A stretch of DNA of 64,000 nt from an uncultured cyanobacterium (GTDB lineage Bacteria; Cyanobacteriota; Cyanobacteriia; Cyanobacteriales; CAWUOF01): assembly GCA_963744145.1 (NCBI GenBank), contig CAVUSO010000001.1, positions 7,424,001 through 7,488,000 of the forward strand, written 5' to 3'. A model generated the notes under the pieces. The model made no database searches and was not told the origin of the DNA. It saw only the letters and a list, made by a program, of their open reading frames with translations. Below are positions 30,221 through 42,773 of this stretch, piece by piece (position 1 is the stretch's first letter; each line of letters opens with the position of its first letter). The translations under genes were made by a program, and so were the position numbers.

Positions 30221-31640
30221 GGTTCTACCGAACTATCTATGTAAAAATATTAGTTATTAGCTCGTAAAACTCCCAATTAAATAATTAATTTATATCTGAA
30301 AAATTACTGACGTGATTGACTTTGGGCGATTTTTATGTTTAAATTGGATTAGAATAATTAAGTACATCTAAGTAAAAATTGACAGCTATGGCATCTTCTT
30401 CTCAACTTCATCTAATGACTTCATTGCTGAATAGTCAAGAATTTAAAGTAGTAGATTATCAATTTCAAGAAGGGATCGGGATATTTTTACGACTAGAAAA
30501 ACGAGAATTAAAAGTTAAATGTCCTTGTTGTGAAAGCCTCACAGATAAATTACATCAAAATCATTGGTATGTAGTAAGAGATTTGGCTTTTGGTGAACAA
30601 CAAATATATTTAAAAGTCAATCGTCGTCAAATGAGATGTGACCAATGTGGCCACAAATTTAGTGAAGAGTTAAATTTAGTGAAGAAGAAAAGAAATTATA
30701 CTGAAAGATTAAGAAATAAAATTATTAAGGAAGTTTTGTCAAGTGACATAAAAAACGTGGCGATACGGTACGGATTTAGCGAGCAAGAAGTAGAGACAAT
30801 GTTAAAAGAATTAGGCGCAGAATTAATGAAAAAAAAGCCCGAAAATTTACAGCGGTTAGGAATCGATGAAATTGCCGTAGTAAAAGGGCAAAAAAATTAT
30901 TATGTAGTGTTAATAGATCTTGACCAAGGAATTGTATTAGGAATTATCGAAAACCGCAAAAAAGCCGAGATAGAAAAATACCTAGAAGCTTGGGGAGAAG
31001 AGGTTTTGGGGCAAATCCAAGAAGTAAGTATTGACCTCTGGCAAATGTATAAAAATATCGCCGAAAAATTGATACCTCAAGCAGAAGTAATCGCCGATAG
31101 ATTTCATGTAATGAAGCAAGTACAGGATGAACTAGATCAAGAAAGAAGGAAAACGAAAAGAACCGCAGAGCCATTGAAAAATAACCAAAAAAAAGAGCAA
31201 ATATTAGGCGGATTAACTAAGAGTAAATATGTCTTACTTAAAAATGAGAAAGATTTAAATGATGATGAATCTCAACGACTTAAATTAGTTAAAAAAGTTG
31301 CTCCAAAATTAGGAAAAATGCATGAGCTCAAAGAAAAATTTAGAAATATTTATGAGTCCAGTAAAGATTGGGTAGAAGGAATATTTAATTTCGCTGATTG
31401 GTTAAAAGAAGCTCAAGATTATTTCCCTCATAGTTGTGGGACAATTATCCGATGGATTGGAGAAATTATTGCCTATTTCGATCACCGAACTACTCAAGGA
31501 GTAGTCGAAGGAATTAATAATAAGTTAAAATTGATTAAAAGGCGTGGCTATGGCTTTAGGAATTTTGATAATTTTCAGCTCAGAAGTATTTTAACTTGGC
31601 ATTTTGCTAGTTAGTTTTACATAGATAGTTCGGTAGAACC
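30221..31640 (+). mobile_element. ISL3-family insertion sequence
   Basis: 26-bp perfect inverted repeat GGTTCTACCGAACTATCTATGTAAAA; 8-bp target duplication TTGATCTT (30213-30220 and 31641-31648). Confidence 0.93.
30379..31614 (+). CDS. ISL3-family transposase
   Basis: CPCC zinc finger, LGIDE, DRFHV, EGINNKLKLIKRRGYGFRNF. Confidence 0.93.
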   Translation: MTAMASSSQLHLMTSLLNSQEFKVVDYQFQEGIGIFLRLEKRELKVKCPCCESLTDKLHQNHWYVVRDLAFGEQQIYLKVNRRQMRCDQCGHKFSEELNLVKKKRNYTERLRNKIIKEVLSSDIKNVAIRYGFSEQEVETMLKELGAELMKKKPENLQRLGIDEIAVVKGQKNYYVVLIDLDQGIVLGIIENRKKAEIEKYLEAWGEEVLGQIQEVSIDLWQMYKNIAEKLIPQAEVIADRFHVMKQVQDELDQERRKTKRTAEPLKNNQKKEQILGGLTKSKYVLLKNEKDLNDDESQRLKLVKKVAPKLGKMHELKEKFRNIYESSKDWVEGIFNFADWLKEAQDYFPHSCGTIIRWIGEIIAYFDHRTTQGVVEGINNKLKLIKRRGYGFRNFDNFQLRSILTWHFAS

Positions 31641-31664
31641 TTGATCTTTTAAAAAAGTTATATG

Positions 31665-33098
31665 TTAGAGTTTAGAGAACAGAAAAGAAGACCCCGATGC
31701 TCCACTCTCAAGGTTGCACCCCCGTCCATTCACCCCCGCAGCCGCACAACACGGGAAGTGACCTAGCGGAGCAGCGCTATTAAAAGTGAGGTCAGAGTAG
31801 TTCAACCAGTTTCCTCCTTTTCTCCAGCCGACTTGATCTGCTAGTTTAACATAAGTATCCCAATCATAACTATCTAGCTTACCACCCAATTTGAGCCAGA
31901 TTTTCTTCTGGACTGAAAACCCAAATTTGTCATTAGAATACTTTAACCACAACTGGTCAATGAGCCGCAGTTCATTTTTCGGAAAATTACGACAGTTATT
32001 TGCTGTTAAGGATCTCTCTTCTTCCCTGTTCATAATTTTTAACATGACTCGAGTAGTTTCTTGATCTGCTTTTTGCCATTTTTTGTCTGATAATAATTGC
32101 TCCAGTTTTCTCAAATCAGCTCTAGATGTAACTAAATTAACTTGGGGTGCTGGAGCAAAATTAACTTGGGGTGCTGGAGCAGGTGTAGGAGAAGTAGGTT
32201 TTGGAGAAGAGCTAGTAGAATGAGGTATTTTAACATCCCCAACTTGGAGTGATGGAGCAGGTGTAGGAACCGTCATAGCATTTAACACCATTGTTGCTGT
32301 CCATCTTTTTTCTCGATCTTTTTCTAATGCTCCCTGGATGATCTCCCGATATCTTTGACTAATTTTTGACCATTCTATGCTCGGTTCTTCCTGAATTACT
32401 TTTACCATCAATTGCTGTTCTGTCTCCCCGATAAAGGGCAACTTTCCTGTCAGCATTTCTGCCATGATTACTCCTAATGACCATATATCCCATCCTGTTG
32501 CTACTACTCCCTCATAAGCTTCCGGTGGTGCGTATTCACTTGTCCCTTTTCTACTACTTGTCCTTGCTGATTTCCCAGAATTGATTGACCTCATTAACCC
32601 AAAATCTGCTAACTTCCAATGCTCCCCAACTTTAATCACATTTGCTGGTTTTACATCCCGATGTACTCGACCCTCTGGTTCTTGATGTAAATAAACTAAT
32701 GCAGCACCGATTTCCTTGACGATTTTCTCTACTTCCTCCTCTCCTAATGCCCCTGGCTTTTGCTCTAGAAGTTTTGCTAGTGTTTCTGCTCCTAATTCCA
32801 TCACTAAGTACAACATTTCTCCGATTTTAATTTGAGTTAACCCTGGCGCATAACAACGAATTAAATGTAGATGATCTAACTTTACTGCTGCAATTAATTC
32901 TTCCAGTTGTTTCTCCCGATTTTTCTGATCTCCTTCGGGTGAAATTAGCTTTACTGCTACTTGACGAATTAGCCGATCGCCTACGACTTCATCGGCACGG
33001 AAAACTGCCCCATATCCGCCCACTCCTAAGAGTTCTTTCAGGTAATATTTTCCGTCAATACATTCTGCCTCTAACAGTCGCCACAATTGTTCATTCAT
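31665..33098 (-). CDS. Ser/Thr protein kinase with one C-terminal GUN4 domain (copy A)
   Basis: LGVGGYG, VAVK, HRDVKPAN, DFG, YAPPE; GUN4 motifs WQKADQET, IDQLWLKYS..KFGFSVQKKIW, GHFP. The ATG at 33098 overlaps the PP2C remnant's stop. Confidence 0.9.
   Translation of the reverse strand: MNEQLWRLLEAECIDGKYYLKELLGVGGYGAVFRADEVVGDRLIRQVAVKLISPEGDQKNREKQLEELIAAVKLDHLHLIRCYAPGLTQIKIGEMLYLVMELGAETLAKLLEQKPGALGEEEVEKIVKEIGAALVYLHQEPEGRVHRDVKPANVIKVGEHWKLADFGLMRSINSGKSARTSSRKGTSEYAPPEAYEGVVATGWDIWSLGVIMAEMLTGKLPFIGETEQQLMVKVIQEEPSIEWSKISQRYREIIQGALEKDREKRWTATMVLNAMTVPTPAPSLQVGDVKIPHSTSSSPKPTSPTPAPAPQVNFAPAPQVNLVTSRADLRKLEQLLSDKKWQKADQETTRVMLKIMNREEERSLTANNCRNFPKNELRLIDQLWLKYSNDKFGFSVQKKIWLKLGGKLDSYDWDTYVKLADQVGWRKGGNWLNYSDLTFNSAAPLGHFPCCAAAGVNGRGCNLESGASGSSFLFSKL
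31688..31751 (-). other. Hypervariable GUN4 C-terminal segment, copy A (64 nt)
   Basis: Lies between the GHFP codons and the constant CTTTTCT anchor; unalignable with the four sister segments. Confidence 0.8.
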
Positions 33099-33339
33099 CA
33101 CCTTCAATTCCTGCTTGAACTTGAATAGCAATCACCGTAATATTATCATTACCACCATGTTCTAAAGCTGTTTCTAGACAAGTTTGAGTCAGGTTTTCCA
33201 TTGAGTTTTCCCACTGTTGCACTAAATCTAGTAACTCATCGTCTCTGACTTCACCATGTAATCCATCGCTATATAATATTAAAACATCTCTACCAAGATA
33301 ATTCCGATAACTTTTTATGTTCATCCCATTTTGGATCAA
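33091..33339 (-). pseudogene. PP2C-family phosphatase, C-terminal remnant
   Basis: DVLILYSDGL...GGNDNITVI; N-terminal half is absent. Confidence 0.8.
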
Positions 33340-33392
33340 CTGTCTGACACAATAGGATCATATCAATCAATCAAAACTCGCTAGCAAGCACT

Positions 33393-33713
33393 ATGACTAC
33401 TCTATTAATGCTTCAACCCTCATCTCTAATCTCCTCTGGTGTTAAAATGAGGCAATTCGGTAATATTTATTTATTCAAGTTTACCGATGAACTCCAGTTT
33501 TGCTTTGAAGAACTTTTAGAAAAGAAAAAAGCTCATATACTCACTCCTGACGAAGAAGCTGAATATATGGGAATATCAGAACTAGAGCAGATTTTTACCC
33601 TAATTAACGCTCAACTTGCAGCCAAAAGCCAATGGTGTCCAACTCAACTCGAAGACTTGTACGACGACGAGCCCGATACCTCTGTGAATACTGTCATTCC
33701 CCCGAATATCTAA
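33393..33713 (+). CDS. Hypothetical protein, antitoxin-like, upstream of an HNH remnant
   Basis: ELLEKKK..LTPDEEAEY pattern; overlaps the HNH fragment. Confidence 0.55.
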   Translation: MTTLLMLQPSSLISSGVKMRQFGNIYLFKFTDELQFCFEELLEKKKAHILTPDEEAEYMGISELEQIFTLINAQLAAKSQWCPTQLEDLYDDEPDTSVNTVIPPNI

Positions 33714-33790
33714 GCCCAGACCGTTTCACAATACTACGTTGCGATCGCCATGACTACCCTGTATCATACCTAGCATCAGCAACGATATAA
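33632..33790 (+). pseudogene. Truncated HNH endonuclease
   Basis: Manual translation MVSNSTRRLVRRRARYLCEYCHSPEYLSPDRFTI, then loses similarity just before the expected DH motif. Confidence 0.65.
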
Positions 33791-33983
33791 TTAGTATTGA
33801 AGATTTAATTAACCGATCGCCATTCATAAAATTCATCAAATATACGGGTTAACTTACTCCTACCTTAACCCAATATTTTTTTAGCGATCGCTATGATTAA
33901 TAGTTCAGGCGATCGCTTCTCCCTAGTCAAACTTATTTAACCAACATATTTAGCGATCGCATTTAACTGTTATCTTTACCAGC

Positions 33984-34110
33984 GCGATCGCTTGCCGATC
34001 AATCGGGTGTAGGGGCGAAGCATTCGGGCGATAATTTATCACTAAAAACCGTTAATATTATATCCGAATGCTTCGCCCTTCTTCTTCTGTGCCAGCTCCC
34101 CAAAAATATC
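33984..34110. repeat. Half unit (hairpin A) of the REP-like repeat downstream of kinase copy B
   Basis: GTAGGGGCGAAGCATTCGG at 34009; same context as array unit 7, which lies downstream of copy A. Confidence 0.85.
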
Positions 34111-34204
34111 ATAGTTTAAGCAACTAATGAAATGCTGCAAACCTCATTCCTACGTCATCCAATTTTTCTGAAAAATATTCTTGATCTTTTAGAAAAGCTA
34201 TATG

Positions 34205-37200
34205 TTAGAGTCTAGAGAAGAGAAAAGAGATTCCCCAAACACCACCCCACACCCACAGAACCCCCCCGACAGCCCGCCCCTCCCACACTGGGAGGTGTCC
34301 CATAGGAGCAGAGATATTAAAAGTGAAGTTAGAGTAGCTGCTCAACCAGTTTCCTCCTTTTCTCCAGCCGACTTCATCTCCTAATTTAACATAAGTATCG
34401 GAATCATAACTATCTAGCTTCCCACCCAATTTGAGCCAGATTTTCTTCTGGACTGAAAACCCAAATTTGTCGTTAGAATACTTTAACCACAACTGGTCAA
34501 TCATCCGCAGTTCATTTTTCGGAAAATTACGACAGTTATCTGCTGTTAACCATCCCTCTTTTTCCCTGTTCATAATTTTACACATAACTCGAACAGTTTC
34601 TTGATCTGCTTCTTGCCATTTTTTGTCTAATAATAATTGATCAAGTTTCCTCAAATCAGCTCTAGATGTAACTAAATTTTCTTGGGGTGATGGAGCAGGT
34701 GTAGGAGAAGTAGGTTTTGGAGGAGAGCTAGTAGAATGAGGTATTTTAACATCCCCAACTTGGGGTGATAGAGCAGGTGTAGGAACCATGTTAGAGTCTA
34801 GAGAAGAGAAAAGAGACAATCCAAACCCCCACCCAACCCACACCCCCAAACCAAACACACCACCAGCCGGGAGGTGTCCCGCAGGAGCAGAGATATTAAA
34901 AGTGAAGTTAGAGTAGCTGCTCAACCAGTTTCCTCCTTTTCTCCAGCCGACTTCATCTCCTATTTTAACATAAGTATCGTAATCATAATCTAGCTTCCCA
35001 CCCAATTTGAGCCAGATTTTCTTCTGGACTGAAAACCCAAATTTGTCATTAGAATACTTTAACCACAACTGGTCAATCATCCGCAGTTCATTTTTCGGAA
35101 AATTACGACAGTCATCTGGTGTTAACCATCTCTCTTTTTCCCTGTTCATAATTTTACACATAACTCGAGCAGTTTCTTGATCTGCTTCTTGCCATTTTTT
35201 GTCTGATAATAATTGATCAAGTTTCCTCAAATCAGCTCTAGATGTAACTAAATTTTCTTGGGGTGATGGAGCAAAATTAACTTGGGGTGATGGAGCAGGT
35301 GTAGGAGAAGTAGGTTTTGGAGAAGAGCTAGTAGAATGAGGTATTTTAACATCCCCAACTTGGGGTGATGGAGCAGGTGTAGGAACCATGTTAGAGTCTA
35401 GAGAAGAGAAAAGAAGACAATGACCATTCAGTTCTCCCACCAAAAATCCCCCACCCCCACCCCCAGGTAAGTGACCTAGGGGAGCATAGATATTAAAAGT
35501 GAGGTCAGAGTAGTTTAACCAGTTTCCTCCTTTTCTCCAACCGACTTCATCCCCTAATTTAACATAAGTATCGGAATCATAACTATCTAGCTTCCCACCC
35601 AATTTGAGCCAGATTTTCTTCTGGACTGAAAACCCAAATTTGTCATTAGAATACTTTAACCACAACTGGTCAATCATCCGCAGTTCATTTTTCGGAAAAT
35701 TACGACAGTTATCTGCTGTTAACCATCCCTCTTTTTCCCTGTTCATAATTTTACACATAACTCGATTAGTTTCTTGATCTGCTTCTTGCCATTTTTTGTC
35801 TGATAATAATTGATCAAGTTTCCTCAAATCAGCTCTAGATGTAACTAAATTTTCTTGGGGTGATGGAGCAAAATTAACTTGGGGTGATGGAGCAGGTGTA
35901 GGAGAAGTAGGTTTTGGAGGAGAGCTAGTAGAATGAGGTATTTTAACATCCCCAACTTGGGGTGATGGAGCAGGTGTAGGAACCATATTAGAGTCTAGAG
36001 AAGATAAAAGAGACCCATCCCCCAAACCCACCCACCAACACCCCACCACAACCCAACCAAATAACGGGAGGTGTCCCCTACGAGCAGAGATATTAAAAGT
36101 GAGGTCAGAGTAGTTCAACCAGCTTCCTCCTTTTCTCCAGCCGACTTCATCCCCTAATTTAACATAAGTATTTGAATCATAACTATCTAACTTCCCACCC
36201 AATTTGAGCCAGATTTTCTTCTGGACTGAAAACCCAAATTTGTCATTAGAATACTTTAACCACAACTGGTCAATCATCCGCAGTTCATTTTTCGGAAAAT
36301 TACGACAGTTATCTTCTGTTAAGTATCCCTCTTTTTCCCTGGTCATAACTTTCAACATGACTTGAGTAGTTTCTTGATCTGCTTCTTGCCATTTTTTGTC
36401 TGATAATAATTGATCAAGTTTCCTCAAATCAGCTCTAGATGTAACTAAATTTTCTTGGGGTGATGGAGCAAAATTAACTTGGGGTGATGGAGGAGGTGTA
36501 AGAGAAATAGGTTTTGGATGAGAGCTAATCGGAGCAGGTGTTTTCGTCATAGCATTTAACACCATTGTTGCTGTCCATCTTTTTTCTCGATCTTTTTCTA
36601 ATGCTCCCTGGATGATCTCCCGATATCTTTGACTAATTTTTGACCATTCTATGCTCGGTTCTTCCTGAATTACTTTTACCATCAATTGCTGTTCTGTCTC
36701 CCCGATAAAGGGCAACTTTCCTGTCAGCATTTCTGCCATGATTACTCCTAATGACCATATATCCCATCCTGTTGCTACTACTCCCTCATAAGCTTCCGGT
36801 GGCGCGTATTCACTTGTCCCTTTTCTACTACTTGTCCTTGCTGATTTCCCAGAATTGATTGACCTCATTAACCCAAAATCTGCTAACTTCCAATACTCCC
36901 CAACTTTAATCACATTTGCTGGTTTTACATCCCGATGTACTTGACCCTCTGGTTCTTGATGTAAATAAACTAATGCAGCACCGATTTCCTTGACGATTTT
37001 CTCTACTTCCTCCTCTCCTAATGCCCCTGGCTTTTGCTCTAGAAGTTTTGCTAGTGTTTCTGCTCCTAATTCCATCACTAAGTACAACATTTCTCCGATT
37101 TTAATTTGAGTTAACCCTGGCGCATAACAACGAATTAAATGTGGATGATCTAACTTTACTGCTGCAATTAATTCTTCCAGTTGTTTCTCCCGATTTTTCT

Positions 37201-37372
37201 GATCTCCTTCGGGTGAAATTAGCTTTACTGCTACTTGACGAATTAGCCGATCGCCTACGACTTCATCGGCACGGAAAACTGCCCCATATCCGCCCACTCC
37301 TAAGAGTTCTTTCAGGTAATATTTTCCGTCAATACATTCTGCCTCTAACAGTCGCCACAATTGTTCATTCAT
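34205..37372 (-). CDS. Ser/Thr protein kinase with four tandem GUN4 domains (copy B)
   Basis: Kinase domain differs from copy A at 3 residues by eye; four GUN4 repeats with anchor spacing 597, 600 and 586 nt. Confidence 0.9.
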   Translation of the reverse strand: MNEQLWRLLEAECIDGKYYLKELLGVGGYGAVFRADEVVGDRLIRQVAVKLISPEGDQKNREKQLEELIAAVKLDHPHLIRCYAPGLTQIKIGEMLYLVMELGAETLAKLLEQKPGALGEEEVEKIVKEIGAALVYLHQEPEGQVHRDVKPANVIKVGEYWKLADFGLMRSINSGKSARTSSRKGTSEYAPPEAYEGVVATGWDIWSLGVIMAEMLTGKLPFIGETEQQLMVKVIQEEPSIEWSKISQRYREIIQGALEKDREKRWTATMVLNAMTKTPAPISSHPKPISLTPPPSPQVNFAPSPQENLVTSRADLRKLDQLLSDKKWQEADQETTQVMLKVMTREKEGYLTEDNCRNFPKNELRMIDQLWLKYSNDKFGFSVQKKIWLKLGGKLDSYDSNTYVKLGDEVGWRKGGSWLNYSDLTFNISARRGHLPLFGWVVVGCWWVGLGDGSLLSSLDSNMVPTPAPSPQVGDVKIPHSTSSPPKPTSPTPAPSPQVNFAPSPQENLVTSRADLRKLDQLLSDKKWQEADQETNRVMCKIMNREKEGWLTADNCRNFPKNELRMIDQLWLKYSNDKFGFSVQKKIWLKLGGKLDSYDSDTYVKLGDEVGWRKGGNWLNYSDLTFNIYAPLGHLPGGGGGGFLVGELNGHCLLFSSLDSNMVPTPAPSPQVGDVKIPHSTSSSPKPTSPTPAPSPQVNFAPSPQENLVTSRADLRKLDQLLSDKKWQEADQETARVMCKIMNREKERWLTPDDCRNFPKNELRMIDQLWLKYSNDKFGFSVQKKIWLKLGGKLDYDYDTYVKIGDEVGWRKGGNWLSSYSNFTFNISAPAGHLPAGGVFGLGVWVGWGFGLSLFSSLDSNMVPTPALSPQVGDVKIPHSTSSPPKPTSPTPAPSPQENLVTSRADLRKLDQLLLDKKWQEADQETVRVMCKIMNREKEGWLTADNCRNFPKNELRMIDQLWLKYSNDKFGFSVQKKIWLKLGGKLDSYDSDTYVKLGDEVGWRKGGNWLSSYSNFTFNISAPMGHLPVWEGRAVGGVLWVWGGVWGISFLFSRL
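34228..34288 (-). other. Hypervariable segment, GUN4 repeat 4 (61 nt, terminal)
   Basis: Encodes VWEGRAVGGVLWVWGGVWGI; 53 of 61 nt are G/T on the coding strand. Confidence 0.8.
34814..34867 (-). other. Hypervariable segment, GUN4 repeat 3 (54 nt)
   Basis: Encodes AGGVFGLGVWVGWGFGLS; 51 of 54 nt are G/T. Confidence 0.8.
35414..35464 (-). other. Hypervariable segment, GUN4 repeat 2 (51 nt)
   Basis: Encodes GGGGGGFLVGELNGHCL; 41 of 51 nt are G/T. Confidence 0.8.
36011..36064 (-). other. Hypervariable segment, GUN4 repeat 1 (54 nt)
   Basis: Encodes LFGWVVVGCWWVGLGDGS; 51 of 54 nt are G/T. Confidence 0.8.
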
Positions 37373-37689
37373 CACCTTCAATTCCTGCTTGAACTTGAAT
37401 AGCAATCACCGTAATATTATCATTACCACCATGTTCTAAAGCTGTTTCTAGACAAGTTTGGCTCATATTTTTTAAGCGGTTCTGAAGGTAAGAGCTGATT
37501 TAATAATTCTCGAAAAGTATTAATGGCAATTTCTGATGCTCTTTTTCTTCCCTTACGTCCCTCCATTCCATCCGCAACTACTGCTAGTAAAGCAGATTGA
37601 GCTGACCAGAATTCTAACAAATGATTGTCTTCATTGACTGGACGAACTTTACCCGTATCAGTTTTAGAATTGTAGATTAGTTGTCTCAT
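37365..37689 (-). pseudogene. PP2C-family phosphatase with large internal deletion
   Basis: TDTGKVRPVNED...VADGM N-terminus joined out of frame near 37460 to the GGNDNITVI C-terminus. Confidence 0.8.
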
Positions 37690-37927
37690 ATTAGAATTTG
37701 CTCGATTACATATTTTCACCTATCTTCATGCGATTCTGCAAGAACATTTTTGTTCCACAACCCTGACAAAACTTAGATTGAGGGGAGTTTTCCTAGGGAC
37801 AATTAGGGTTAAGACATTTAATAAGGTTACTCATAATTTTGGAAACCTGATGTGCTAAGATCAATTAGGTAATCCGATCATATCAGAAAAATTAATGGTG
37901 TTGCTGATGATCGGCAGACACCTCGAA

Positions 37928-38926: not shown

Positions 38927-39670
38927 ATGAAGCTAGACTATTTACCAACCGAAAAATTTTTGGCATATCCACATCAGTTTCTCGGTAAAGTTTTAGTCGT
39001 AACTTCTTGTACTGGGGAGAAACGTTACAAACCTGAAAATCAATTGACAATAGAGGATTTTAAAGAAAAAGCTCGATTCCAACAACAAGAAGCACAACTT
39101 ACTCAATTTGCTTATCCTGCAAGTCAGATGTATACAGGGACACAACACCTACGAGCAATGGAAGGAGTTAAATTACTGCGTCAGTTCCTTGGACAGGAAG
39201 TTGTAGATGTGGTGATTTTGTCTGCGGGCTATGGTTTAATTTCTGAGAACAAAACTATTGTACCATATCAAGTCACCTTCAACACAATGAAAGGTTACGA
39301 GATCGATGAGTGGGCAAAGTTTCTGGGAATACACCAAGCTTTTGAACAAGCTATTGTTGGTTATGATTTGGTGTTTATATTGCTGGGAGAAAATTATTTG
39401 CGATCGCTTTGTCTCCCTGTTGAAACTTACGATAAGCAAACTTTTATTTTTTTAGCATCGCATCGAGGTGCCAATTATATTCGAGATTTAGCTGCAAAAG
39501 CTTATGTCCTACATCTTGCCAACGCCGATGCTAAACATTACCATTATGGATTAGTAGGTTTGAAAGGATTTTTGTTCAAAAGGTTTGCTGAATGCGTTAC
39601 AAGAGAATGGACGCTACTAAAAAAGATTTATGACCAACCAGAATTATTTGTCCAGATTGTTAGATCCTGA
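38927..39670 (+). CDS. DpdA-associated protein (DUF6884/YaaA-like)
   Basis: VVTSCTGEK, ASQMYTG, ILSAGYGLI..PY motifs; overlaps the dpdA-like gene. Confidence 0.6.
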   Translation: MKLDYLPTEKFLAYPHQFLGKVLVVTSCTGEKRYKPENQLTIEDFKEKARFQQQEAQLTQFAYPASQMYTGTQHLRAMEGVKLLRQFLGQEVVDVVILSAGYGLISENKTIVPYQVTFNTMKGYEIDEWAKFLGIHQAFEQAIVGYDLVFILLGENYLRSLCLPVETYDKQTFIFLASHRGANYIRDLAAKAYVLHLANADAKHYHYGLVGLKGFLFKRFAECVTREWTLLKKIYDQPELFVQIVRS

Positions 39671-41045
39671 GTCTGTTCAGCTAGAGATACCATTAGAACT
39701 GCCAAAAGTCAAGCTTTCTCTTAAATCGGTTAAGAATCCAAGAATTGGTAAGTCTGAAGACAAAGAACTGATTCCTATTCCTGATGTCCCGATCGCTCCT
39801 AATTTAGATTTGGGAATGCAATATTTTATTCCTGAATGGGACGATCGCGTAGACCCTCACTATAATTTTTTGGATGATGCTCTGACACCGGGTCGAGACT
39901 CTTACAATGATGATTTATATGCTCATCAGATTTATAACAGTCCTAACTATAATGGAATTTTAGTTTCTAAGGGAATTGTCGAGCGTAGTAAAAAAAAGAA
40001 AGCACTAATTGAAAAAATAGGAATTCACAAATTTATCCGATTTTCAGGTTCAGTAATGGGAGATTGTGGAGCTTTTGGATATATCAATCAAGAGGTTCCT
40101 CCCTATAATACAGAAGAAATTCTAGAATACTATGAACGCATCGGATTTGACTATGGAGTGAGTATAGATCACCTGATTGTTGGATCATTTGCTGAATCCG
40201 GAGTGAGGGAAAAAAGATACAATTTAACCATAAAGAATGCAGAAGATTTTATCCATAAGCATCGAGCGATCGGATATAAATTCACTCCCATTGGTGCAGT
40301 TCAAGGGTGGGACCCAAAATCTTATGCTAATGCGGTCAAAGACTATATTAAAATGGGCTATAAATATATTGCATTGGGGGGACTAGCTAGGACTCCTAGC
40401 AAAGAGATTCTAAAAATATTAGAAAGTATTCACCCACATTTAACTTCCCAAACTCAGATGCACCTGTTTGGGGTAGGACGACTCAATGCTGTTCCAGCTT
40501 TCCGTCATTTAGGAGTAACCAGTTTTGATTCTGCAAGTCCATTGCGTAAAGCTTGGCTGGATTCAGCCGCAAATTACCATACTTTAGATGGTAAAACCTA
40601 TGCAGCTATTCGCATTCCTAAAGTAGATGGCTATGGGGTGCGTATTAAGCGATTGTTGGAAGCAGATGTATCAGATCGGGCAACCCTAAAAAGTCTTGAG
40701 GAAGATGCACTTACTAAACTGCGGGAGTTTAATTTAGGTCTTGTTACTTTAGAGTCAACCCTCTCATCACTACTTGCTTTAGACGAGTTACTAGAATTAC
40801 CTCGTGATGGTCAGGTAAACTCTCAAGAAAAAGCCAGACGCTTACATAGACACACGCAAATGTATCAGGAGCTTTTGGAGGAACAGCCTTGGAAGAAATG
40901 TGATTGTGTAATCTGTCAAGAAATTGGGATTGAAGTTGTAATTTTCCGAGGAAATGATCGTAACCGTAGACGTGGCTTCCATAATACCTATATTTTCCAT
41001 AAGCGCTTTAATGCCTTACTTAAAAATGAAAAATTTTTGAACTAA
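39630..41045 (+). CDS. dpdA: DpdA-like tRNA-guanine transglycosylase paralog (DNA 7-deazaguanine insertion)
   Basis: YFIPEWDDRVDP, MGDCGAF, SIDH, AVQGW, ALGGL, HLFG, SFDSAS, CDCVIC and RNRRRGFHN zinc-site motifs. Confidence 0.78.
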   Translation: MTNQNYLSRLLDPESVQLEIPLELPKVKLSLKSVKNPRIGKSEDKELIPIPDVPIAPNLDLGMQYFIPEWDDRVDPHYNFLDDALTPGRDSYNDDLYAHQIYNSPNYNGILVSKGIVERSKKKKALIEKIGIHKFIRFSGSVMGDCGAFGYINQEVPPYNTEEILEYYERIGFDYGVSIDHLIVGSFAESGVREKRYNLTIKNAEDFIHKHRAIGYKFTPIGAVQGWDPKSYANAVKDYIKMGYKYIALGGLARTPSKEILKILESIHPHLTSQTQMHLFGVGRLNAVPAFRHLGVTSFDSASPLRKAWLDSAANYHTLDGKTYAAIRIPKVDGYGVRIKRLLEADVSDRATLKSLEEDALTKLREFNLGLVTLESTLSSLLALDELLELPRDGQVNSQEKARRLHRHTQMYQELLEEQPWKKCDCVICQEIGIEVVIFRGNDRNRRRGFHNTYIFHKRFNALLKNEKFLN

Positions 41046-41055
41046 AGAGGATTCA

Positions 41056-41636
41056 GTGGAAAAGAAATTTTTGCCGCTCTTCTCTATGGACCACGCGGGT
41101 CTGTTAAGAAAGTTGAAGGATATAGAAGGAGATTACGGGATTCTAGCTCCCCTTTCCTGCCCAAAAAATCTTCTTAAAGATATTCGCAATACAGGTAAAC
41201 TTTTCTTTATTGACAGTGGTGTTTTTGAAAATCAAGCTCCTCCCTGGTACTACCAACTTCATTGTGAGTTCCTTCAGCAGCGATGGGTGCGAGAATTACG
41301 TTTGACTTCGGAACAACAATTAAGACAGAGGGTAAAAGACTATTTGAGTTTATGTGACATGATATTGGCTATCAGTGCATTGCTTTGGGAGGTTTATTAA
41401 AAGCCGACACTACTATGCCAACTGGTTTGAGGTTTGGTTTATCCGCTCAGGAACTAGATGAATTACTTACATGGGCTAGACCTGAATTGGTTTTAGGAGG
41501 TCTGGCTTTAAGCCGTATAGAAGTCCTCAAGAAACACAATGTTTGGGCTGATTCTACCAATTGGCTCTGGTGGGATGCTCGTTATGATCGGCAAAGGTTT
41601 GGACATCGGAATGTTTTTCAGGAAATTTTAGGGTGA
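41056..41636 (+). pseudogene. Fragmented second TGT-barrel-like gene
   Basis: FIDSG in the first ORF; GGL and ADSTNW in the second, different frame. Confidence 0.5.
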
Positions 41637-41678
41637 ATATTGTCATTACCCGTCAACAACAGTAGTATAACCATTCAA

Positions 41679-42773
41679 TTAGATAAGACCATTTACTGGG
41701 GCAACACCAACAAATTCACGCAGTGTCTTATGACACAAATCTACGGTTGTCTTTGTATTGGAAATAATCGGTTCTCCTTTAGCACCAACTTGTGTTACTC
41801 CTCTTTCTCGCCATCAAGCATTCTCGCGCTGCCACTCTATCTTTCGGAGCCGATATAACCATTGAACAATATCTTCTTCAGGAATAGCTTCTAGATAGAA
41901 TTCATGAGCCAGCATTCCTAATGCTTGGAATACAATAGCTGTTACTGCAAGTGAATTCTGTCTTTGCTTAGTGCGTTCCTCTTTACTTTTAATGCTCCAC
42001 GGGTCGTTAGGTAGAACACTCGCGGTTGCTGCCCAGAATGTGGTTGCCCAGCTAGTTAGTGGCTCCAAACCCTCTTTAGATTTTAAATAAGGGAACATAT
42101 GTCGGGTAGCTGTAACTAGGGTAGAAAATGTCAGCAATTTGGAATTATGTTTACCTAAGCCGTTTTCAACCATCTCTACATTGTTACGGAACTGAGGGAC
42201 TCGCTTAATCAAGTCTTTGGCAATTAAAACCACAGGCGATCGCTGATCGAAAGCGTGAGAGAGCGACACGCTTGGTCTTTGAACTAGAAGGTTTTGATCG
42301 CGGAAAGCTTGACGTTCCTCCTCCAATGACAGTCCAGCATATAAAAGTACCCCAATTTCAAGTTGAGAAAGGATTGGTAGATATTCCCACTGTTCAACTT
42401 GGATGTCTTTTAGTGCTTGACGGATACCAAAACATCTATGCTGACCGTCTGTCAAACCCAGAGTAACCGAGTGGTAAGGAAGAAAGATGCTGCCATTGCT
42501 ATAAGTCGGTGATAGTTGAACATTTACACAAATCGGTGGGAAAAACGTAGTACCAACTTGGTAAGTCTCCAGAATATACCGGGCGATCGCTTTAACTCTC
42601 GTAGCGTTGGGTTTGCGTTGAGCAAAATCTGGCAAATCTGACTCATTGGGAACATAAAGGCGATCGTCATTTAGCAGTCGGGCGACATCGCCAAAAAACA
42701 GAGAGCCAACATAACTTTGATGTTCACTCTGTGGTCCCCGACAAACAGGTACAGCTCGAATTACAAGTTCCAT
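41679..42773 (-). pseudogene. DGQHR/DndB-family (DpdB-like) protein with in-frame TGA at 41814-41816
   Basis: AQR, FFPPI, DGQHR, QAFRDQN motifs; the frame continues for 44 codons after the TGA (WRERGVTQ...NGLI*). Confidence 0.75.

Follow-up and report, generated by a model that had tools for sequence, protein, structure and literature searches.

A frame-tolerant, G/T-rich tail on cyanobacterial GUN4 sensor domains that turns over between species

How can five copies of one protein domain, carried by two neighbouring genes, agree closely up to the same few codons and then run into segments no more alike than shuffled sequence? The question is raised by a 64,000-nt stretch of cyanobacterial DNA (G000:C1:7424001-7488000; called the window here) from a genome of 7.70 Mb and 39.4% G+C. 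Two Ser/Thr kinase genes in it, K1 and K2, carry one and four GUN4-like domains, respectively (U1 in K1, U2 to U5 in K2), and each domain ends in a short G/T-rich segment, the tip, of its own sequence and length. An earlier note took the tips for the products of a localised rewriting process, by an atypical reverse transcriptase (RT), untemplated synthesis or donor-cassette conversion, with the machinery acting in trans. What we find has the look of a tolerance for slippage built into the gene, and not of a new diversification system driven by an enzyme. With a probability of about 0.6, we prefer the view that tip turnover arises in a G/T tract that is free of stops, intrinsically unstable and placed in a tolerant linker, ahead of an anchor sequence that can be read in any frame.

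Both genes encode kinases of the Hanks type (Pkinase profile matches of 2.3e-45 and 2.1e-45), and both pass the curated cut-off of the GUN4 family PF05419, the matches ending at profile positions 124-133 of 141. When the five units are aligned, conservation is good up to the GH(L/F)P codons and resumes at a 24-nt pyrimidine-rich anchor, CTTTTCTCTTCTCTAGACTCTAAC. The coordinates and lengths of the tips between these borders (Table 1) and their G+T counts (45/64 in U1, 53/61 in U5, 51/54 in U4, 41/51 in U3 and 51/54 in U2) were all reproduced as first noted. Between units, identity is 82-95% over the 520 nt upstream of the tips, counting linker indels, and 83-100% over the anchor; for pairs of tips it falls to 0.52-0.66, the level of shuffled tips (0.51-0.64). 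To call the domains near-identical, as the earlier note did, is somewhat generous, DNA identity being 85-95%. The kinase domains do differ at only 3 residues in the translations (L/P, R/Q, H/Y), and at 14 of 882 nt (98.4% identity). An origin of the tips by hyper-transition that preserves purines and pyrimidines was rejected by eye, the two 54-nt tips having no common purine/pyrimidine pattern; where sequence consists of G and T only, this amounts to the identity comparison above.

Is the peptide or the DNA under constraint? Synonymous codons were resampled with the peptides unchanged, using the codon usage of this genome as counted in 1182 long open reading frames (ORFs). Against this null model the window tips hold 46 third-position Gs where 22.3 are expected (z 7.2) and 10 third-position As where 28.6 are expected (z -4.8); third-position G is also in excess in 38 other tails of the genome (z 9.8). 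Tips use GGG, GTG and TTG instead of the genome-preferred GGA/GGT, GTA/GTT and TTA. The counts support a bias that resides in the nucleotides and exceeds the needs of the peptide. Since the observed residues (G 31%, V 14%, L 13%, W 9%, F 6%, C 5%) are close to those expected from random sequence of tip base composition (G 24, V 17, L 10, W 8, F 5, C 7%), the richness in Trp and Cys, within a make-up of G, V, W, L, F and C, is a by-product of the G and T nucleotides. Replication-strand bias is not the cause, because the G+T bias follows the coding strand on either chromosome strand (0.70 in 16 plus-strand genes, 0.73 in 26 minus-strand genes). That A-poor sequence keeps all frames open was borne out in the window tips, where 3 off-frame stops compare with 9.0 expected, a count that 5 of 2000 resamplings reach.

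The anchor 3' of the tip is conserved at the level of DNA, and all three of its frames are in use. The window-type anchor gives SLFSSLDSN.. in frame 0, LFSLL* in frame 1 (used by the paralogue at C1:7499205) and SFLFSRL* in frame 2. In the larger subfamily a single sequence, TCTCTTCTCTCGCGCAAAGACTTGTAACCTGTAAGATATAA, whose three frames have staggered stops, gives the endings ..LLSRKDL*, ..LFSRAKTCNL* and ..SLAQRLVTCKI*. All three frames terminate within about 10 codons in a similar S/L/F-rich tail, frame 0 of the window family excepted, where the early stop is absent. The genome has 54 PF05419 matches, of which the best 43 were examined; an anchor is recognisable in 24 of these 43 tails, with frame counts of 4/8/4 for what we call the E1 type and 3/4/1 for the window type. 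Between paralogues that read it in different frames, anchor DNA identity is 0.74, against 0.69 for the domain body. Among 157 fetched proteins with a GHLP-type motif near the end, six classes of ending hold 12, 21, 40, 22, 9 and 3 members, and 50 are unclassified. Annotators and alignment methods should be warned that three C-terminal 'motif families' are here one DNA sequence in three frames.

In the window family, tip length modulo 3 appears from the sequence to decide between termination and read-through. The terminal units U1 and U5 (1 mod 3) stop in frame 2; the internal units (0 mod 3) use frame 0 and continue via ATGGTTCCTACACC.. into the next GUN4 unit. It follows from the sequence that a frame change in an internal unit of K2 would truncate the protein after that domain.

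In the protein, the tip lies beside the predicted ligand pocket. Alignment to the solved GUN4 structures (1z3x, 6.5e-20; 1y6i, 1.2e-16) runs from query residues 11-136 to residues 99-218 of 1z3x and 92-210 of 1y6i, and ends at GHLP plus one or two residues. According to passages on SynGUN4, Pro208 and Leu210 protrude into a 'greasy palm', Arg214 and Arg217 are a predicted clamp for porphyrin carboxylates, and helix alpha7 starts at Val218 (PMC1084334, in part). An AlphaFold2 model of U5 (49-sequence alignment) has a predicted local distance difference test score (pLDDT) of 89.8, with tip residues 140-149 below 50 and the anchor peptide as a confident helix at 152-160. The model and the PDB sequence matches agree on a GUN4 core fold with its final helix packed on the palm. 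So modelled, the tip is the end of the alpha6/alpha7 loop, between GH(L/F)P, whose Pro and next residue would plug the porphyrin pocket, and the last helix. A pair of the Arg214/Arg217 type was not found after GHLP: the tips replace that stretch, and a single R occurs only in U5 (VWEGRAV..). In the model, then, the tip is a disordered linker at the hinge of a lid over the predicted ligand pocket, in place of the arginine pair, and it may influence ligand choice or serve as a hydrophobic tail for membrane binding.

The G/T-rich tail is a feature of the GUN4 paralogue family and not special to this locus. The canonical GUN4, one of the 43 and the sole match spanning the whole profile, has a tail G+T of 0.42; of the 42 non-canonical paralogues, 29 have tails with a coding-strand G+T of at least 0.70 and 13 fall below. 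The chromosome has 51 stretches of 45 nt that are rich in G/T or A/C; 9 of them lie at GUN4 tails, and most others are tandem repeats. Similar tails occur in homologues whose sources are named Microcoleus, Laspinema, Crinalium, Okeania, Microcystis, Dolichospermum and others, and at the DNA level in four of the five other genera examined. An unrelated two-unit kinase (P0002) repeats the pattern of the window, its near-identical units bearing unrelated tips. Tandem kinase-GUN4 or GUN4 genes form two more clusters in the genome (C1:1292576-1303365 and C1:327980-337870), which hold a 746-aa ORF with two GUN4 units fused via a frame-c anchor that lacks its stop. The family-wide occurrence, the three-frame anchor and the setting of termination or read-through by tip length all go beyond the earlier note.

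That the tips are assembly or sequencing noise in G-rich DNA has next to no chance. G-rich homopolymers are error-prone, and public contigs do break near the tip; the same architecture recurs, however, in dozens of independent assemblies, complete genomes included, with all reading frames open and ending at the expected stops. Four public sequencing runs were used as contigs: X1 holds 0.60 of sampled genome words, X2 0.07, and X3 and X4 next to none. Over 33350-34700 the X1 contigs show the organism to be present (a 485-nt contig with 0 differences) and break around the tip, at a depth of about 4.

How old, then, are the differences between the tips? U2, U3 and U4 each continue into one identical and unique junction (..TCTAACATGGTTCCTACACC..), while the terminal units continue ..TCTAACATATAGC... 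Because each internal tip lies 24 nt upstream of this shared duplication junction, the three come most simply from one ancestral tip, and the sequence argues for a common ancestor since become unrecognisable. The earlier note itself had named old divergence with homogenised flanks as a scenario that would refute its proposal. In such a scenario the tips diverged long ago, and the flanks were made alike later, through gene conversion or unequal crossing-over halted where homology ends at the tip. The locus has traits to match. Variants are shared in mosaic fashion (GGTCACTT in U1 and U3, GGACACCT in U2, U4 and U5, an AGC insertion in U4 and U5), and since the kinase domains are 98.4% identical as against 82-95% for the GUN4 units, conversion or recent duplication acts here. 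The shared junction stands against this scenario, under which tips so placed should have a common origin, and the orthologues described next speak to it as well.

Since the collections hold no close relative of the window locus (the closest K1 homologue outside this genome with at least 90% of the query covered is 49% identical; a single GUN4 unit has a best match of 68% outside this genome; among 30 relatives the best match reaches 65%), turnover was followed in the orthologous kinase-GUN4 gene of 20 Microcoleus-group genomes. The anchor is found in 19 of them (frames 4/5/10), which gives 171 pairs. Tips measure 37-94 nt when a short pyrimidine run ahead of the anchor is included. Starting with the anchor, 95 nt that are mostly 3' untranslated region (UTR) equal the 600 nt of upstream coding sequence in conservation. 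Four pairs have an upstream identity of at least 96%, and their tips are 98-100% identical. In four pairs at 93.2-93.7% and in the 163 pairs below 93%, tips are at the shuffled level; for the 163, mean tip identity is 0.500, against 0.508 when shuffled, with the 3' flank at 0.83. Among protein clusters formed at 90% identity, tips are identical in 6/6 members from Microcystis and in 5/5, 7/7 and 3/3 members of three others; in clusters 3, 5, 8 and 9, which all but cluster 3 include Microcoleus-named members, the tailed members all differ (4/4, 4/4, 3/3 and 3/3). The 71-nt tip of one Microcoleus locus, L057, occurs at full length in 1 of 79 genus genomes, at its own locus only.

Tip turnover is episodic, on the timescale of speciation, and is not per-generation hypermutation. 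Of the localised rewriting first proposed, one half stands: change is confined to the tip and far outpaces both flanks. The other half, that rewriting is ongoing, does not, as tips are identical among close relatives. Such within-species stability would suit old tips too. Their difficulty is that the same contrast appears between Microcoleus species at a single-copy orthologue, where there is no array for conversion to act in, and that a pool of old alleles predicts sharing across species, of which none was seen in the 79 genomes. We regard great age with later homogenisation as unlikely, at odds still worth counting.

Could the tips be written from a template or copied from a donor? Window-type anchor copies (at most 4 mismatches) number nine in the genome, and all are accounted for: five in the window, three at paralogue tails and one in a gene fragment, where the final part of a tip follows a truncated kinase. 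Neither flank is copied in the genome outside GUN4 tails, no non-coding copy with an A-rich middle was seen in the flank-guided search that the earlier note had recommended, and window tips have no non-self match in the genome better than E 0.24. A classical diversity-generating retroelement (DGR), with a template differing only at adenines, is scarcely credible on these grounds. It would fit the C-terminal place of the variable region in a kinase-linked sensor domain, and the genome does hold a remnant of the machinery, described below. A DGR target would be expected to have a template repeat, a variable region of constant length and an intact RT. None of these was found: length ranges over 51-64 nt in the window and 37-94 nt in the orthologues, differences fall at every kind of base, and the fold is GUN4 and not CLec. 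The earlier note's own judgement that this is no classical DGR is thus confirmed. Gene conversion from silent cassettes, as between pilE and pilS, or from the tips of other paralogues is very improbable. The genome's roughly 54 GUN4 matches with conserved flanks are potential donors, and G-quadruplex (G4) motifs lie within tips; yet no silent copy sharing the flanks was found, every anchor copy is accounted for, no tip is copied elsewhere in the genome, and the L057 tip is absent from the other 78 genus genomes.

Three RVT_1 matches occur in the genome: a group-II-like RT, Drt5 and a truncated DGR-type RT, which leaves the atypical RT of the earlier note without a candidate. The truncated frame (275 aa; C1:5012059-5012886, L021 6060-6887) is probably, from its sequence, a DGR remnant. 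It has a DGR-like IGNLTSQ motif, which we take to be a DGR hallmark, and has no CLec gene nearby; a non-coding repeat of about 280 nt stands on either side of it, the two copies differing by indels and not at adenines.

Beyond the stops lies a further conserved element. About 110 nt past the E1-type anchor, 3' of all three stops, are conserved across genera (..ATTTCAGGCCATTTGTCAAGCTT..CTACGAAAACATCGGCTTT; for example C1:378993-379100 and Microcoleus loci L054-L073). The opposite strand reads TTGACA, 16-17 nt and a TATA-like hexamer, so that the element could hold an antisense promoter. RNAalifold on 29 sequences of it gave no consensus structure (energy 0.0), and a hairpin seen by eye (CCTGTAA..TTTCAGG; GCTGTAA..TTTCAGC in Microcoleus) was not confirmed. 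Rfam has no family at the tails of five sources, its sole match being a tRNA in L061. Nor did a scan of 31500-34400 for promoters and terminators reveal anything at the tail (4 promoter-like sites against 6.8 expected, and 0 terminators).

This element is what a dedicated trans-acting system might recognise, in the manner of the DGR initiation of mutagenic homing (IMH) site and hairpin, putting newly made G/T-rich DNA of variable length, templated loosely or not at all, in place of everything as far as GHLP. Such a system would give the sharp boundaries on both sides and the all-or-nothing replacement. It would also suit the uniqueness of every tip (the window tips have no second copy, and that of L057 is confined to one genome), the DNA-level conservation past the stops, and the synonymous-site bias, which points to nucleotides and not to the peptide. 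Related kinase domains (55-60% identity) carry FGE-sulfatase/CLec, the architecture that DGRs target, according to parts of PMC7517822. On the other side, none of the RTs above is a candidate, and no polymerase or RT is found among the neighbour genes of the window; the earlier note had seen no RT in the window. Tips are stable in close relatives (all members of four clusters at 90% identity or more), the small changes that are observed are a 1-nt change of run length and a G-to-T change, and the excess of short internal repeats described below fits local duplication. With no candidate gene, template or donor, the trans-acting machinery proposed at the outset is not supported, and we hold it to be quite unlikely.

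Several signs point instead to local instability of the DNA itself. Of 135 G/C runs of at least 7 nt in the genome, 6 lie in GUN4 tails: runs of G7-G8 are found in tails of this genome in addition to the G7 of U5, and G8-G12 in Microcoleus tips. Between two close orthologues, a G9 run (L064) against G8 (L054) shifts the frame, changing ..SLASRAVSCNL* to ..VLSHREL*, with the G8 genome being a metagenome bin; within the same run, L070 has a G-to-T change. These are the only tip changes between close orthologues. Repeats of 5-7 nt are in excess over shuffles (z 3.9-4.9) in the tips of both this genome and Microcoleus, and one locus, L058, has a partial duplication of the anchor. Canonical G4 motifs of the chromosome lie in GUN4 tails in 9 of 82 cases, tips U5, U4 and U2 included, always on the coding and never on the template strand; as the tails make up about 0.13% of the chromosome, the enrichment on the coding strand is about 85-fold. 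The gene fragment with the ninth anchor copy (155 aa; C1:2896307-2896763, L022 1808-2264, minus strand) ends in HRDVKPG, joined directly to the last tip bases and anchor (..CFSFLFYRI*); from its sequence, it appears to be a deletion with one breakpoint inside a tip.

The anatomy of the tail, its nucleotide bias, the use of all three frames and the episodic turnover among orthologues are observed; how turnover would come about we infer as follows. In non-canonical GUN4 paralogues of filamentous cyanobacteria, the coding strand of the tip consists of G and T runs, with little A and few stops. The pyrimidine-rich anchor after it yields an S/L/F-rich helix in any frame, with stops in all three, except that in the window family one frame lacks the early stop and reads into the next tandem unit. 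Homopolymer slippage and small duplications and deletions would make the tract unstable; breaks linked to G4s or R-loops may contribute, and G runs may grow and later decay through G-to-T changes. Given a disordered loop and an acceptable helix at the end of every frame, tips of nearly all lengths and sequences should survive. Quick replacement of the tip would therefore come from near-universal tolerance, while the flanks would be held by selection and, within the tandem array, by concerted evolution. A dedicated enzyme or template would not be required.

Some observations weigh against this explanation. Turnover is all-or-nothing: there are no intermediates between 96% and 93.7% flank identity, which gradual slippage predicts poorly. 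Conservation of the 3' flank well past the last stop, across genera, is unexplained by it. Most runs in the tips are of 2-5 nt, short for high slippage rates, and the G8 of L054 may be a sequencing error. At the thresholds used, 19 of the 43 tails lack a recognisable anchor. Depletion of off-frame stops is clear in the window family only: 37 paralogue tails beyond it have 101 against 113 expected, a marginal shortfall that 126 of 2000 resamplings reach. Dedicated machinery and ancient tips both keep some weight because the favoured explanation accounts poorly for all-or-nothing turnover and the conservation of about 110 nt on the 3' side. It is also conceivable, if doubtful, that the whole tail is an evolved diversification module for the sensor loop, consisting of the G4-prone, stop-free G/T tract, the three-frame anchor and the staggered stops. 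Slips would then re-frame the loop within the G/V/W/L/F/C alphabet and toggle termination and read-through, either without an enzyme or with the help of a factor acting on the 3' element. If so, filamentous cyanobacteria would have, beside DGRs, a second and retroelement-free diversification of kinase-linked sensors.

Table 1. Kinase genes, GUN4 domains, tips and anchors of the locus (positions in the window)
Feature	Position	Strand	Basis
K1, Ser/Thr kinase gene, 488 aa, single C-terminal GUN4-like domain	31665..33131	-	ORF; Pkinase 2.3e-45, GUN4 1.3e-39
K2, Ser/Thr kinase gene, 1066 aa, four GUN4-like domains in tandem	34205..37405	-	ORF; Pkinase 2.1e-45, GUN4 1.1e-164 in 4 stretches
GUN4 domain U1	31743..32123	-	Profile match, C1:7455743-7456123
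GUN4 domain U2	36032..36436	-	Profile match
GUN4 domain U3	35462..35836	-	Profile match
GUN4 domain U4	34859..35239	-	Profile match
GUN4 domain U5	34283..34663	-	Profile match; AlphaFold2 pLDDT 89.8
Tip U1, 64 nt, 1 mod 3, terminal, ending ..SFLFSKL*	31688..31751	-	Segment check, alignment
Tip U2, 54 nt, 0 mod 3, internal, read-through, canonical G4 motif	36011..36064	-	Segment check, alignment, G4 scan
Tip U3, 51 nt, 0 mod 3, internal, read-through	35414..35464	-	Segment check, alignment
Tip U4, 54 nt, 0 mod 3, internal, read-through ..LFSSLDSNMVPTP.., canonical G4 motif	34814..34867	-	Segment check, alignment, G4 scan
Tip U5, 61 nt, 1 mod 3, terminal, ending ..SFLFSRL*, canonical G4 motif	34228..34288	-	Segment check, alignment, G4 scan
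G7 run (C7 on + strand) inside tip U5, candidate slippage site	34261..34267	-	Sequence, run list (C1:7458261)
24-nt pyrimidine-rich anchor after U1 (CTTTTCTGTTCTCTAAACTCTAAC)	31664..31687	-	Anchor search
24-nt anchor after U2, frame 0	35987..36010	-	Anchor search, frame analysis
24-nt anchor after U3, frame 0	35390..35413	-	Anchor search, frame analysis
24-nt anchor after U4, frame 0 (LFSSLDSN) into next unit	34790..34813	-	Anchor search, frame analysis
24-nt anchor after U5, frame 2 giving SFLFSRL*, predicted final helix	34204..34227	-	Anchor search, AlphaFold2

The surroundings of the two genes (Table 1) bear marks of rearrangement. Fragments of a PP2C phosphatase gene lie upstream of both kinases, the C-terminal 82 aa before K1 (33091-33339, minus strand) and the N-terminal 98 aa before K2 (37423-37719, minus strand), and the homology of K1 and K2 continues for 66 nt 5' of the start codons (to 33197 and 37471). 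Both PP2C copies look as if broken by the rearrangement that duplicated the kinase. On the other side of K1 is an ISL3-family transposase gene (30379-31614, plus strand; DDE_Tnp_ISL3 9.4e-67). The match between the 3' UTRs of K1 and K2 ends about 24 nt past the stop codon, some 30 bp before the transposase stop at 31614, as if the remainder of the K1 3' UTR had been cut off by an insertion. The 3' region of K2 holds an inverted-repeat element at 33994-34085 (GGGGCGAAGCATTCGGGCG ... CCGAATGCTTCGCCC) whose summed contig depth in run X1 is about 1200-1600, where unique flanks have about 9; it is therefore a small repeat of high copy number, possibly a miniature inverted-repeat transposable element. 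Palindromes of the type GCGATCGC are abundant in the intergenic DNA of the window.

At 38927-42773, 1.5 kb from K2, lies a Dpd-like cluster for 7-deazaguanine modification of DNA, with DpdA at 39630-41045 (PADLOC 2.7e-127). It also includes a DndB-like gene on the minus strand (41814-42773) and a weak DpdC-like/DUF6884 gene (38927-39670). These neighbours were considered as a cause of the tips and set aside: DpdA was not found in 5 of 5 Microcoleus genomes with G/T-rich tips, in a search that had no positive control, and a link between the cluster and the G-rich tips is unlikely.

Full-text literature searches found no paper that describes such GUN4 tails, which are a real and apparently undescribed variant of indel-driven hypervariability, a frameshift-robust architecture in a widespread sensor domain. 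In multicellular cyanobacteria, kinases, caspases and TIR proteins carry GUN4-like domains as one of their commonest sensor modules (PMC7159879, in part). In these sensors a stretch adjoining the predicted ligand pocket turns over wholesale between close species, in a tail so built that an insertion, deletion or frameshift there would still give a complete protein. The tail is thereby an example of coding sequence shaped for frameshift robustness, and offers a concrete, testable handle on the diversification of GUN4 sensors.

In closing, we compare the tail with systems already known. Canonical GUN4, the Mg-chelatase cofactor (1y6i, 1z3x), has the same fold, GHLP plug and final helix, and the tip corresponds in position to its alpha6/alpha7 loop hinge adjoining the porphyrin pocket (PMC1084334, in part). 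Canonical proteins have a short, fixed linker with two predicted clamp arginines, whereas the paralogues have 12-30 variable G/V/W/L/F/C residues and have kinases as fusion partners, with caspases, trypsin and TIR domains as further partners (PMC7159879, in part). The DGR variable regions in the CLec domains of cyanobacterial Ser/Thr kinases are similar in being C-terminal variable segments of a sensor domain on the same kind of kinase; related kinase domains carry PF03781 in place of GUN4, going by portions of PMC7517822. The GUN4 tips differ in having no template repeat, adenine-specific pattern or linked RT, and in their variable length and other fold.

Contingency loci, which vary phase through simple sequence repeats, have parallels in the G runs of 7-12 nt within the coding sequence of GUN4 tails and in the 1-nt difference of run length that alters the frame between close relatives (the one G9/G8 case, in species-level genomes). 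The frame change here, however, is not an on/off switch, as all three frames give a similar C-terminus, and the tract, known here from assembled sequence, is a compound of many short runs and not one repeat. Instability linked to G4s or R-loops is known from the G4 of Neisseria pilE, which starts pilin variation, and from immunoglobulin switch regions. The tails likewise have G4 motifs on the non-template strand where the tip varies; they differ in that there are no donor cassettes and no known deaminase, and the tie to instability would be a putative one. Cryptically simple coding sequence produced by slippage shares with the tips the excess of short internal repeats and the biased composition, but the GUN4 tips are confined between two conserved anchors, within one domain family, and are followed by a sequence that tolerates any frame.

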